From a virus (taxonomy: Duplodnaviria; Heunggongvirae; Uroviricota; Caudoviricetes), in IMG/VR virus record IMGVR_UViG_2671181040_000009: a DNA stretch of 4,077 bases. The stretch is one strand, 5' to 3'. Positions 1 to 4,077 of the stretch are shown here, in pieces. The translations under genes and the position numbers were made by a program. Each line of letters starts with the position of its first letter. The stretch's first letter is position 1. Under the pieces are notes generated by a model. The model was not told where the DNA came from and did no database searches. It saw only the letters and a list, made by a program, of their open reading frames with translations.

Positions 1-99
1 CTTCCATCGGAAACGATGATCTGGCAGCCTGAGTTCACAGATAAAACACTCTCCAGGAAACCCGGGGCGGTTCAGAGAGGTGCTGGCTCAAAAGGATAG
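1..99 (+). CDS. 3' end of an upstream ORF open at the window start (frame 1, stop TAG 97-99); identity unknown, possibly C-terminus of a Q-like late antiterminator by position only
   Basis: Frame 1 is open from base 1 to TAG at 97-99 (LPSETMIWQPEFTDKTLSRKPGAVQRGAGSKG*); the other two + frames hit stops within 30 nt. It sits just upstream of a tR'-like terminator and the lysis cassette, where lambdoid phages carry Q. I do not recognise the residues themselves. Confidence 0.25.
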   Translation, partial: LPSETMIWQPEFTDKTLSRKPGAVQRGAGSKG

Positions 100-343: not shown

Positions 344-550
344 ATGGAAAAAATCACAACAGGTGTGTCATACACCACGTCAGCGGTGGGGACGGGATAC
401 TGGTTACTGCAGCTGCTGGACAAAGTCTCTCCGTCCCAGTGGGTGGCAATAGGTGTGCTGGGAAGTCTGCTGTTTGGCCTGCTGACGTATCTGACAAATC
501 TTTATTTCAAGATTAAAGAAGATAAGCGTAAGGCTGCGAGAGGTGAATAA
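344..550 (+). CDS. S: Class II holin (pinholin), phage 21 S21-type, 68 aa
   Basis: [68 protein letters not shown] closely matches my recollection of the S21 / DLP12 EssD pinholin (...[24 protein letters not shown]...[21 protein letters not shown]). Two predicted TMDs: a weakly hydrophobic Gly/Ser/Thr-rich TMD1 and a TMD2, with a charged C-terminus. GGAG at 329-332 as SD. Stop TAA 548-550 overlaps the next start (TAATG). Confidence 0.9.
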
Positions 551-1047
551 TGTCGCCGTCATTACGCAAGGCTGTTGCAGCTGCTATTGGTGGTGGGGCT
601 GTTGCCATAGCGTCTGTGCTCATCACTGGTCCAGGTGGTAACGATGGTCTGGAAGGTGTCAGCTACATACCATACAAAGATATCGTTGGCGTATGGACTG
701 TATGTCACGGACACACCGGAAAAGACATCATGCCCGGTAAAACGTATACCGAAGCAGAATGCAAAGCCCTCCTGAATAAAGACCTTGCCACGGTCGCCAG
801 ACAAATTAACCCGTACATCAACGTCGATATACCGGAAACAACGCGCGGCGCTCTTTACTCGTTCGTTTACAACGTGGGCGCTGGCAATTTCAGAACATCG
901 ACGCTTCTTCGCAAAATAAACCAGGGCGATATCAAAGGCGCATGTGATCAGCTACGGCGCTGGACATACGCTGGCGGTAAGCAATGGAAAGGGCTGATGA
1001 CTCGCCGCGAGATTGAGCGTGAAGTCTGTTTGTGGGGGCAACAATGA
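550..1047 (+). CDS. R: SAR (signal-anchor-release) endolysin, T4-lysozyme-like muramidase (GH24), phage 21 R21-type, 165 aa
   Basis: N-terminal Gly/Ala-rich SAR domain ([23 protein letters not shown]) followed by a lysozyme core with E35, D44 and T50 in the positions of the catalytic triad ([17 protein letters not shown]). Near-identical to R21 / DLP12 RrrD as I recall them. Start ATG 550 overlaps the holin stop; GAGGTG as SD. Confidence 0.93.
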
Positions 1048-1481
1048 GCAGGGTAACCGTTATTATCTCCGCTCTGGTTATCTGCATTATCGCCTGCCTG
1101 TCATGGGCTGTTAATCATTACCGTGATAACGCCATCGCCTACAAAGAGCAGCGCGATAAAGCCACATCCATCATCGCTGATATGCAGAAGCGGCAACGTG
1201 ATGTAGCAGAACTTGACGCCAGATACACAAAGGAGCTTGCTGATGCTAATGCGACTATCGAAAGTCTCCGTGCTGATGTTTCTGCTGGGCGTAAGCGCCT
1301 GCAAGTCTCCGCCACCTGTGCAAAGTCAACGACCGGAGCCAGCAGCATGGGCGATGGAGAAAGCCCAGGACTTACAGCAGATGCTGAACTCAATTATTAC
1401 CGTCTCCGAGGTGGAATCGACAAGATAACCGCGCAGGTTAACTACCTGCAGGAATACATCAGGACGCAGTGCTTAAAATAA
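1044..1481 (+). CDS. Rz: Rz i-spanin (inner-membrane spanin subunit), lambda-like, 145 aa from ATG 1044
   Basis: [31 protein letters not shown]... matches the lambda Rz N-terminus ([31 protein letters not shown]). N-terminal TMD then a charged coiled-coil periplasmic domain. ATG 1044-1046 overlaps the endolysin stop TGA 1045-1047 (ATGA). The ORF track starts at GTG 1032, but ATG 1044 matches the lambda Rz start and is preceded by a GGGGG SD. Confidence 0.9.
1243..1428 (+). CDS. Rz1: Rz1 o-spanin (outer-membrane lipoprotein spanin subunit), embedded in the +1 frame of Rz, about 61 aa
   Basis: ORF in the +1 frame lies entirely inside Rz. From ATG 1243: [36 protein letters not shown]..., with a lipobox-like VSAC and a Pro-rich mature region, as in lambda Rz1. 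AGGAG SD at 1231-1235, 7 nt upstream. The track start at TTG 1213 is less likely. Confidence 0.75.
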
Positions 1482-1548: not shown

Positions 1549-1699
1549 TACCGGTATTTCACCGCGCACCGCAGCGCACAATAAACACCGAACCTGACCC
1601 TTTGGAATGGGCCTTTGAGGATACCAGTTAGTGCTGGCGAGCCTCGGTGGGCTGGTTTCCTGTGCGGCAAAGGTTCATTTCAAAGAAGCAGGCAACGCC

Positions 1700-2248
1700 A
1701 TGAATGAATTAATTGCGAATCATGACTTCGACTTTCGCCAGTTAGTTACCGCAGCAGAAGGTCAACCGGTAACTGACACCTTCCAGATTGCCAGGGCATT
1801 TGGTAAACGCCATCAGCATGTGATTAGGGCTATTAAATGTTTGAGATGTTCTGAGGAATTCTCGACAACCCATTTTTGGGCCGTCGAGAAAATCAATGAC
1901 TTAGGTATTTTTGACAAGAAACAGATTTACTACCGCATGGACTTTAGTGGCTTCGTTATGCTGGTTATGGGATTTAACGGGGCAAAAGCCGATGCTGTTA
2001 AAGAAGCCTATATCAATGCGTTTAACTGGATGTCAGCAGAACTCCGTAAGTACAGCGAAAGTTATGAAGCAGAACGTAACGCCGTAATGCTGGAGTACAT
2101 GAAAGAGAAGGATGTCGCCAGCATGTCAGGCCGTCTGCTCAATCGCTGGGGGAGAACGAAAAAAACTCAATTGCTTGCAAAGCTGGAACGTCTGGAGAGA
2201 CAGGGACAGTTTTTATTACCGGGATTCGATAAAGGTATTCAAGCCTGA
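1700..2248 (+). CDS. Rha-family phage regulatory protein (Phage_pRha-like domain), about 182 aa from ATG 1700; alternative GTG start at 1631
   Basis: Motifs VTDTFQIARAFGKRHQHVIRAIK and GFVMLVMGFNGAKADAVKEAYINAFNWM resemble the conserved Rha-domain blocks (FGKRHdnVlRdI and LLvMgftGkkA...YIeaFN) as I recall them. The short C-terminal tail is helical and charged. Start is ambiguous: ATG 1700 (MNELIANHDF...) or GTG 1631 with a GAGGA SD 9 nt upstream. Confidence 0.6.
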   Translation: MNELIANHDFDFRQLVTAAEGQPVTDTFQIARAFGKRHQHVIRAIKCLRCSEEFSTTHFWAVEKINDLGIFDKKQIYYRMDFSGFVMLVMGFNGAKADAVKEAYINAFNWMSAELRKYSESYEAERNAVMLEYMKEKDVASMSGRLLNRWGRTKKTQLLAKLERLERQGQFLLPGFDKGIQA

Positions 2249-2435: not shown

Positions 2436-2630
2436 TCATCCATCATCACTTTGGATTGATGTATATGCTCTCTTTTCTGACGTTAGTCTCCGACGGCAGG
2501 CTTCAATGACCCAGGCTGAGAAATTCCCGGACCCTTTTTGCTCAAGAGCGATGTTAATTTGTTCAATCATTTGGTTAGGAAAGCGGATGTTGCGGGTTGT
2601 TGTTCTGCGGGTTCTGTTCTTCGTTGACAT
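2436..2630 (-). CDS. ylcI: Small ribbon-helix-helix-like DNA-binding protein, YlcI/YnfO (DUF3950)-like, 64 aa
   Basis: Reverse-strand ORF MSTKNRTRRTTTRNIRFPNQMIEQINIALEQKGSGNFSAWVIEACRRRLTSEKRAYTSIQSDDG: basic N-terminus, then a beta-strand/helix/helix pattern (NIRFP / NQMIEQINIALEQ / NFSAWVIEACRRRL) typical of Arc/CopG-type RHH proteins. Same length (64 aa) and same position beside the Nu1 homologue as ylcI in E. coli K-12 DLP12, as I recall. ATG confirmed as reverse complement of 2628-2630. SD is weak. Confidence 0.6.
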   Translation of the reverse strand: MSTKNRTRRTTTRNIRFPNQMIEQINIALEQKGSGNFSAWVIEACRRRLTSEKRAYTSIQSDDG

Positions 2631-2691
2631 GAGGTTGCCCCGTATTCAGTGTCGCTGATTTGTATTGTCTGAAGTTGTTTTTACGTTAAGT

Positions 2692-2724
2692 TGACGCAGA
2701 TCAATTAATACGATACCTGCGTCA
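2692..2724. promoter_or_regulatory. 8-bp inverted repeat TGACGCAG / CTGCGTCA with a 17-bp AT-rich spacer; candidate operator or promoter element in the divergent region between the ylcI-like gene and Nu1
   Basis: 2692-2699 TGACGCAG and 2717-2724 CTGCGTCA are exact reverse complements. The surrounding 2640-2800 is AT-rich with recurring TGAC(G/A) motifs at about 2625, 2692, 2737 and 2767. Function is inferred, not shown. Confidence 0.35.
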
Positions 2725-2798
2725 TAATTGATTATTTGACGTGGTTTGATGGCGTAGATGCACGTTGTGACATGTAGATGATAATTATTATCATTTTA

Positions 2799-2815
2799 CT
2801 GTCGTTTCCTTTCTC
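2799..2815 (+). promoter_or_regulatory. cosB R1-like Nu1 binding element (CTGTCGTTTCCTTTCTC), the only lambda cos element retained
   Basis: Matches lambda R1 (lambda coordinates about 151-167, CTGTCGTTTCCTTTCTC) as I recall the lambda left end. Lambda-identical sequence continues from here into Nu1, but the sequence upstream of about 2799 does not match lambda. Confidence 0.55.
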
Positions 2816-2838
2816 TGTTTTTGTCCGTGGAATGAACA

Positions 2839-3384
2839 ATGGAAGTCAACAAAAAGCAGCTGGCTGACATTTTCGGTGCGAGTATCCGTACCATTCAGAA
2901 CTGGCAGGAACAGGGAATGCCCGTTCTGCGAGGCGGTGGCAAGGGTAATGAGGTGCTTTATGACTCTGCCGCCGTCATAAAATGGTATGCCGAAAGGGAT
3001 GCTGAAATTGAGAACGAAAAGCTGCGCCGGGAAGTTGAAGAACTGCGGCAGGCCAGCGAGACAGATCTCCAGCCAGGGACTATTGAGTACGAACGCCATC
3101 GACTTACGCGTGCGCAGGCCGACGCACAGGAGCTGAAAAATGCCAGAGACTCCGCTGAAGTGGTGGAAACCGCATTCTGTACTTTCGTGCTGTCGCGGAT
3201 CGCAGGTGAAATTGCCAGTATTCTCGACGGGATCCCCCTGTCGGTGCAGCGGCGTTTTCCGGAACTGGAAAACCGACATGTTGATTTCCTGAAACGGGAT
3301 ATCATCAAAGCCATGAACAAAGCAGCCGCGCTGGATGAACTGATACCGGGGTTGCTGAGTGAATATATCGAACAGTCAGGTTAA
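2839..3384 (+). CDS. Nu1: Terminase small subunit gpNu1 (lambda Nu1-type), 181 aa
   Basis: MEVNKKQLADIFGASIRTIQNWQEQGMPVLRGGGKGNEVLYDSAAVIKWYAERDAEIENEKLRREVEELRQ... is essentially lambda gpNu1 (N-terminal winged-HTH DNA-binding domain) with a few substitutions. The 546-nt length and spacing to A match lambda coordinates 191-736. Confidence 0.95.
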   Translation: MEVNKKQLADIFGASIRTIQNWQEQGMPVLRGGGKGNEVLYDSAAVIKWYAERDAEIENEKLRREVEELRQASETDLQPGTIEYERHRLTRAQADAQELKNARDSAEVVETAFCTFVLSRIAGEIASILDGIPLSVQRRFPELENRHVDFLKRDIIKAMNKAAALDELIPGLLSEYIEQSG

Positions 3385-4077
3385 CAGGCTGCGGCATTTT
3401 GTCCGCGCCGGGCTTCGCTCACTGTTCAGGCCGGAGCCACAGACCGCCGTTGAATGGGCGGATGCCAATTACTATCTCCCGAAAGAATCCGCATACCAGG
3501 AAGGGCGCTGGGAAACACTGCCCTTTCAGCGGGCCATCATGAATGCGATGGGCAGCGACTACATCCGTGAGGTGAATGTGGTGAAGTCTGCCCGTGTCGG
3601 TTATTCCAAAATGCTGCTGGGTGTTTATGCCTACTTTATAGAGCATAAGCAGCGCAACACCCTTCTCTGGTTGCCGACGGATGGTGATGCCGAGAACTTT
3701 ATGAAAACCCACGTTGAGCCGACCATCCGCGATATTCCGTCGCTGCTGGCGCTGGCTCCGTGGTATGGCAAAAAGCACCGGGATAACACGCTCACTATGA
3801 AGCGTTTTTCCAATGGTCGTGGCTTCTGGTGCCTGGGCGGTAAAGCGGCAAAAAACTACCGTGAAAAGTCGGTGGATGTGGCGGGTTATGATGAACTTGC
3901 TGCCTTTGATGAGGATATTGAACAGGAAGGCTCTCCGACGTTCCTGGGTGACAAGCGTATTGAAGGCTCGGTCTGGCCAAAGTCCATCCGTGGCTCCACG
4001 CCCAAAGTGAGAGGCACCTGCCAGATTGAGCGTGCAGCCAGTGAATCCCCGCATTTTATGCGTTTTCATGTTGCCTG
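3359..4077 (+). CDS. A: Terminase large subunit gpA (lambda A-type), 5' portion only (first about 239 codons), truncated by the window end
   Basis: Translation from 3359 gives MNISNSQVNRLRHFVRAGLRSLFRPEPQTAVEWADANYYLPKESAYQEGRWETLPFQRAIMNAMGSDYIREVNVVKSARVGYSKMLLGVYAYFIEHKQRN..., matching the lambda gpA N-terminus as I recall it, with a few substitutions. The start codon here is GTG (3359-3361), directly after an in-frame TGA at 3356-3358, and it overlaps the Nu1 3' end by 26 nt as in lambda (A at 711, Nu1 ending 736). Absent from the ORF track because it has no stop in the window. Confidence 0.93.
   Translation, partial: MNISNSQVNRLRHFVRAGLRSLFRPEPQTAVEWADANYYLPKESAYQEGRWETLPFQRAIMNAMGSDYIREVNVVKSARVGYSKMLLGVYAYFIEHKQRNTLLWLPTDGDAENFMKTHVEPTIRDIPSLLALAPWYGKKHRDNTLTMKRFSNGRGFWCLGGKAAKNYREKSVDVAGYDELAAFDEDIEQEGSPTFLGDKRIEGSVWPKSIRGSTPKVRGTCQIERAASESPHFMRFHVA

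Follow-up and report, generated by a model that had tools for sequence, protein, structure and literature searches.

A 180-bp deletion that probably removed the packaging site of a decaying lambda-type Escherichia coli prophage and left its terminase genes in place

The window, that is, the whole stretch of 4,077 bases that we analyzed, is the late region, from the lysis genes to the terminase, of a lambda-type E. coli prophage, and it lacks the 180 bp in which its relatives carry their packaging signals. An alignment of window positions 2560-2900 with phage PhiR11_1 and lambda DE3 contains a single 180-column gap at 2798/2799, with near-identity on both sides. Counted from the first base of the cohesive end, the missing stretch extends from -30 to +150. 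It comprises cosQ (GGGTCCT), the 12-mer of the cohesive end (GGGCGGCGACCT), R3, the IHF site I1, R2, and the spacer between R2 and R1; the positions of cos and cosQ are consistent with those annotated in the deposited DE3 and 434 records. Both flanks are collinear with those of cos-bearing phages and prophages, to which they are 95-100% identical, and together with the clean gap this supports a deletion. On the strength of these comparisons, we consider it likely that a private illegitimate deletion of 180 bp caused a packaging defect in cis in a decaying lambda-type prophage. A single event of this kind would have taken cosQ, cosN, R3, I1, and R2, that is, the whole functional packaging site except the accessory R1 element, and it was probably one further step of decay in a prophage that already bore an insertion sequence. 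An earlier note on this DNA had offered, as one of two options, that recombination removed cosN, R3, and R2 and spared the terminase; the alignment supports this option and makes the loss larger, as cosQ and I1 are also gone.

The features of the window are listed in Table 1. They follow each other in the order IS3 end, S, R, Rz/Rz1, rha, ylcI, (cos), Nu1, and A, and the cos regions of lambda, 434, PhiR11_1, DLP12, and Qin share the order of lysis genes, ylcI, cos, Nu1, and A. The slot between Rz and ylcI, which is held by bor in lambda, PhiR11_1, and DLP12, is here taken by the Rha/ORF11CD3 gene, the copy of which in E. coli MB06102 is annotated as "Rha family transcriptional regulator." Positions 1-74 are identical to the IS3 copy located upstream of the holin gene in MB06102 (L005), and in relatives other than MB06102 the match begins only at position 75. 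Among 5,426 complete E. coli genomes, only MB06102 matches the IS3 end and 75-2797 as a single contiguous piece; in several O26 strains, this query is matched in two pieces, and about 1.4 kb of additional sequence is present. An Rfam scan of the whole window returned zero matches.

Table 1. Coordinates of the features of the window, with strand and basis of assignment
Feature	Position	Strand	Basis or remark
IS3-family insertion sequence, right end (last 74 bp)	1-74	+	1-32 are the 3' end of the transposase CDS
Class II holin (S)	344-550	+	Pfam Phage_holin_2_1, 112 bits
Endolysin (R, lysozyme)	550-1047	+	Pfam Phage_lysozyme, 156 bits
Rz i-spanin	1044-1481	+	Pfam Phage_lysis, 120 bits
Rz1 o-spanin lipoprotein gene, out of frame inside Rz	1243-1428	+	Pfam Rz1, 72.5 bits
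Rha-family regulator with ORF11CD3 domain	1631-2248	+	Pfam Phage_pRha, 75 bits; ORF11CD3, 78 bits
YlcI/YnfO family protein (DUF3950)	2436-2630	-	Pfam DUF3950, 72.8 bits; same annotation in relatives
Intergenic stretch, 208 bp	2631-2838		Between ylcI and Nu1
Non-coding DNA homologous to the lambda right end, normally reaching cosQ	2631-2798	+	
Putative deletion junction TTTTA-C-TGTCG, 180 bp missing	2798-2799	.	Alignment
Orphan R1 element of cosB, core CGTTTCC at 2803-2809	2799-2815	+	Identical to R1 of lambda and PhiR11_1
Terminase small subunit Nu1, full length	2839-3384	+	Pfam Phage_Nu1, 336 bits
Terminase large subunit gpA, N-terminal 239 codons, past the window end	3359-4077	+	Pfam GpA_ATPase, 132 bits

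The earlier note had described 2640-2798 as an unrelated AT-rich region and had placed a break in homology just before R1. The region is indeed AT-rich, with a GC content of 35% versus 50% for the whole window, but it is not unrelated: it matches lambda (the DE3 record) at 151 of 159 positions (95%), just upstream of cosQ, and phage PhiR11_1 at 157 of 159 (98.7%). Homology to lambda does not break before R1; it skips exactly 180 bp. In the circle or the prophage, the lambda right end adjoins cos directly on the upstream side, and the premise that this DNA was unrelated arose because only the linear left end of lambda had been considered. Nor is 2640-2798 itself a known cos region, as the note had allowed it might turn out to be; it aligns to the lambda right end up to cosQ, and in phage 434 the same right-end sequence stops at the deposited cosQ feature, GGGTCCT. 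On the plus strand of this flank, a sigma-70-like hexamer pair (GTGACA-16-TATCAT, 10/12) lies at 2767-2794 and points toward Nu1; the deletion brings it closer to the start codon of Nu1, from about 225 bp upstream to about 45 bp.

From 2799 onward and into Nu1, the window is lambda-identical, as the note had stated, starting with the R1 element (CTGTCGTTTCCTTTCTC at 2799-2815), which is the sole cos subsite left in the window. The note's statement that the window contains no cosN was likewise confirmed: the 12-mer GGGCGGCGACCT has no match with two or fewer mismatches on either strand of the whole window, and the five matches found with three mismatches are at chance level (2.95 expected). The cosQ motif GGGTCCT is also absent, as window positions 2791-2805 read TCATTTTACTGTCGT and the relatives read TCATTTT(G/A)CGGGTCCT. 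R3, I1, and the inverted R2, which lie between cosN and R1, were not found in the window and all fall inside the gap. The note had reported no other CGTTTCC/GGAAACG in the window, which was incorrect: a second CGTTTCC (GGAAACG on the plus strand) is located at 9-15 in the IS3 end. It is at chance level, with 0.52 expected and at least two matches in 17 of 200 shuffles, and it has no bearing on cos.

The closest relatives of the window have a cos site where the window has none. Positions 1-2797, IS3 end included, are 100% identical to a prophage (A) of E. coli MB06102, an isolate from seawater in the Galapagos, in which cos is normal. Positions 2799-4077 differ from prophage A at 11 sites (SNP positions within 2976-3665) and are 100% identical to the second lambdoid prophage (B) of MB06102; the same right flank, again at 100%, is found in the second lambdoid prophage of AMSHJX01, ESBL 15, 19AR0254, 22-245, and 22-250. 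Prophages A and B are both lambdoid, co-resident, and in opposite orientation. A prophage of AMSHJX01 (L018, at 3.35 Mb) is 100% identical to the window over both 75-2797 and 2799-4077, with 0 mismatches in 4,002 aligned bases and cos intact, so that the IS3 insertion and the absence of cos are all that sets the window apart from it. As this single prophage combines an A-type left flank and a B-type right flank with a normal cos, we discarded a chimera or inversion between prophages A and B; judging from AMSHJX01, the A-left/B-right combination is a natural mosaic. The SNP pattern of this combination resembles the outcome of gene conversion involving prophages A and B of the MB06102 lineage.

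The MB06102 prophage (L021, 3279000-3328000) adjoins bioA/ybhB, i.e., the lambda attachment site. Its cargo consists of the type III effectors EspJ, Cif, and NleH, together with LpxR; IS621 interrupts its major capsid gene, and IS3 is located upstream of its holin gene. The closest genomes have three places with near-identical cos/Nu1 regions. The source of the window was probably a close relative of MB06102 with a prophage that was already decaying.

The other option put forward in the earlier note, namely that the prophage packages from a different, unrecognized cos (or from a pac site) elsewhere, is highly improbable. The window does give a view of only 4 kb of the replicon, and lambda-like phages with a simpler cosB exist, N15 being an example (PMC4669245). 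However, an N15-type simple cos itself keeps cosQ and cosN followed by a single R3, with rR2 as an accessory element within the TerS gene (PMC4669245), and cosQ and cosN are absent from the window, in which there is neither a cosN-like 12-mer with up to two mismatches nor a cluster of R elements. No foreign DNA has taken the place of cos: the flanks are abutted and otherwise identical to those of cos-plus relatives, including the 100% identical flanks of AMSHJX01, where cos is normal. Moreover, Nu1 is identical to lambda Nu1 at 179 of 181 residues, the only differences being at residues 75 and 132, so that residues 1-74, with the N-terminal wHTH DNA-binding domain, are those of lambda; the terminase is therefore expected to still require lambda R elements as its target. 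Lambda terminase in turn requires cosB to be properly placed beside cosN (PMC4669245). The gpA DNA in the window is 100% identical to that of AMSHJX01 and of MB06102 prophage B, and gpA is complete in the relatives, with 641 aa.

Across the junction, the window reads ...ATCATTTTA-C-TGTCGTTTCC..., and the relatives at the same site read ...ATCATTTT(G/A)-C-GGGTCCT...(cosN, R3, I1, R2)...GGCCT-C-TGTCGTTTCC... The left edge of the deletion is the first base of cosQ, and its right edge is located just before R1. The single C at the junction can be assigned to either flank, which corresponds to a microhomology of 1 bp. No direct repeats bracket the deletion endpoints in the parental sequence, and a repeat-mediated deletion was rejected on this ground. 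The left endpoint follows directly after an AT-rich palindrome, and the right endpoint lies within the 25-nt R2/R1 inverted repeat. The microhomology of 1 bp and the location of the endpoints at a palindrome and an inverted repeat fit replication slippage or hairpin-associated illegitimate recombination, and we infer that the 180-bp deletion arose by one of these mechanisms.

Two features of the sequence around the junction deserve a separate description. At cosQ, CGGGTCCTTTCC (L018 5169-5179) resembles the R1 sequence CTGTCGTTTCC (L018 5350-5360; window 2799-2809), and because of this resemblance the BLAST alignments of cos-plus genomes overrun the window junction by about 11 nt. GGGTCCTTTCC at cosQ is similar to TGTCGTTTCC at R1, and this similarity is offset from the junction by 1-2 nt. 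At position 2798, the window has an A, where the MB06102 prophage has G and AMSHJX01 has TG. The A allele occurs together with an intact cosQ (TTTTAC-GGGTCC) in nine IMG/VR contigs, one of which is 99.65% identical to the window over 2228-2798, and a non-templated filler base at 2798 is therefore a needless assumption. Either the parent had the A allele or a one-base change came with the event.

The cos site is kept in other genomes with the same flanks. In 10 of the 10 genomic contexts shown for the exact Rha protein, the spacing between ylcI and Nu1 is 388-390 bp, versus 209 bp here. Both flanks are held by about 3,300 of the 5,426 complete E. coli genomes. Records were sampled at even spacing along the match ranking, and those with both flanks were counted; in all 46 of these E. 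coli records, the span was 380-382 bp, meaning that 180±1 bp of cos are kept. They include K-12 records with the match under nohD (DLP12) and records annotated with nohA, as the Nu1 homologue of Qin is called. In addition, the cosQ-cosN 42-mer was present in 23 of 23 related loci that were fetched. With cos kept in 46 of 46 and 23 of 23 cases, the missing segment in the window is more than chance.

The junction itself was found in no other sequence. A 53-nt junction query was not spanned in any of the 5,426 complete E. coli genomes, its 18 partial matches there being intact cos sites in which a T-to-A SNP precedes R1 (e.g., L004), and it was absent from the phage and plasmid collections. Exact and degenerate junction patterns were absent from the IMG/VR viral contigs and the GTDB species representatives. 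Four metagenome or MAG matches to the junction pattern (L006-L009) were dismissed as chance 22-mers in unrelated DNA. These chance 22-nt degenerate matches include L007/L009 (ERZ772969 NODE_812; URJS01000025.1) and L008; among them are a contig from a gut metagenome, assigned by binning to "uncultured Roseburia sp.," and its near-identical counterpart in another co-assembly. As read from these searches, the deletion is a real feature of this sequence and is not a polymorphism common to any known genome; it looks private to one lineage and seemingly a one-off.

A junction that is a singleton among all the collections searched might also be an artifact of assembly or sequencing, in which case cos would be normal in reality and the contig mis-built across a repeat shared by two to three co-resident lambdoid prophages. 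The three near-identical cos/Nu1 places in the closest genomes are in line with this explanation, as is the identity of prophages A and B from about 2317 to 2975, a type of repeat that troubles assemblers, and the base at the junction is unlike that of the closest relatives. We nevertheless regard an artifact as unlikely. A k-mer graph cannot form a junction with a 1-bp overlap unless that junction is present in the reads, and the parental endpoints have no flanking repeat. The A-left/B-right arrangement is no chimera, as it occurs in AMSHJX01 with an intact cos, and the rest of the window is free of errors when compared to L018.

Deliberate removal of cos was also considered. In engineered lambda prophages from which cos has been deleted, phage DNA is left unpackaged and cosmids are still packaged (PMC11338833), and the window resembles such delta-cos helpers (the CY2120-derived strains for cosmid production) in that the terminase genes are kept and cos is gone. 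The edges of the deletion are functionally tidy, from the first base of cosQ to just before R1, with no scar and with the Nu1 ribosome-binding site kept, as might be expected of a scarless construct made for the production of packaged cosmids. Such an origin is, however, extremely unlikely here. The background is not that of laboratory lambda, given that Rha replaces bor and an IS3 insertion is present; wild prophages from animal and environmental isolates (AMSHJX01/MB06102) match the flanks at 100%; and the junction is missing from the plasmid and phage collections. Unlike the engineered helpers, the window is a wild-type-like mosaic prophage with an IS3 and no sign of manipulation.

A private deletion in a decaying prophage remains the explanation that we prefer, and its expected consequences can be drawn from work on lambda. 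In lambda, cosN and cosB are needed for the initiation of packaging, and cosQ and cosN for its termination (PMC4669245); the role of R1 is accessory and not critical (Feiss et al. 2015, PMC4669245). The loss of cosN would leave gpA without a nicking site, the loss of R3-I1-R2 would leave Nu1 without its anchoring platform, and the loss of cosQ would leave packaging without termination. By analogy with lambda, the DNA of this prophage can probably no longer be cut or packaged, and because the lesion is in a cis site, the terminase of a co-resident phage would not rescue it. Late transcription of Nu1 arrives from upstream, so the deletion need not alter terminase expression. The encoded terminase could remain active in trans on further cos sites of the lambda type within the cell, given that cos-deleted engineered lambda still packages cosmids.

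Two further ideas, namely that the prophage is a natural delta-cos helper that is inducible, makes terminase, and produces particles carrying only other cos-bearing DNA, and that the deletion is a scar of escape, are in our view quite improbable. As a helper, the prophage would form capsids perhaps with the help of co-resident prophages, and its cargo would be the two other lambda-type cos loci of the closest relatives or cos-type satellites (PICIs). As an escape scar, the deletion would reflect selection for the loss of cos after the terminase of a co-resident phage had repeatedly cut the chromosomal cos. By analogy with the closest relative, whose capsid gene is broken, helper activity of the window prophage is doubtful.

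Understood as a deletion in a decaying prophage, the finding is of a known kind, namely a defective lambdoid prophage whose lesion lies in a cis site, and it is the counterpart in nature of the laboratory delta-cos helpers. Relative to lambda-type cos systems, the window has flanks that are 95-99% identical, an identical R1, an Nu1 that is nearly so, and the N-terminus of gpA, and it lacks the 180 bp with cosQ, cosN, R3, I1, and R2 that every lambda-type comparator retains, including DLP12 (nohD) and the nohA records. The pool of Sp prophages in O157 Sakai and the lineage of the window are both lambdoid and IS-ridden, with signs of recombination between prophages (PMC2669165). Like that pool, the closest relatives of the window carry type III effectors and several near-identical co-resident prophages. 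In Sakai, Sp4 is packaged by the terminase of Sp14, since their cos sites match (PMC2669165). The Sakai defects affect genes and are open to complementation in trans, whereas the defect in the window is in a cis site, which no co-resident phage supplies.

The deletion amounts to one private mutation in a site that is well understood, and it raises no new question. For annotation, it teaches that an intact terminase does not equal a packageable prophage: the cis site needs checking, and this check needs the circular or prophage form of the reference and not its linear map. For the prophage, the deletion, if real, locks it into its host and ends the spread of this copy by virions; it also takes a terminase cutting site off the chromosome. 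The prophage in the closest relatives resides at attB-lambda and carries EspJ, Cif, and NleH.
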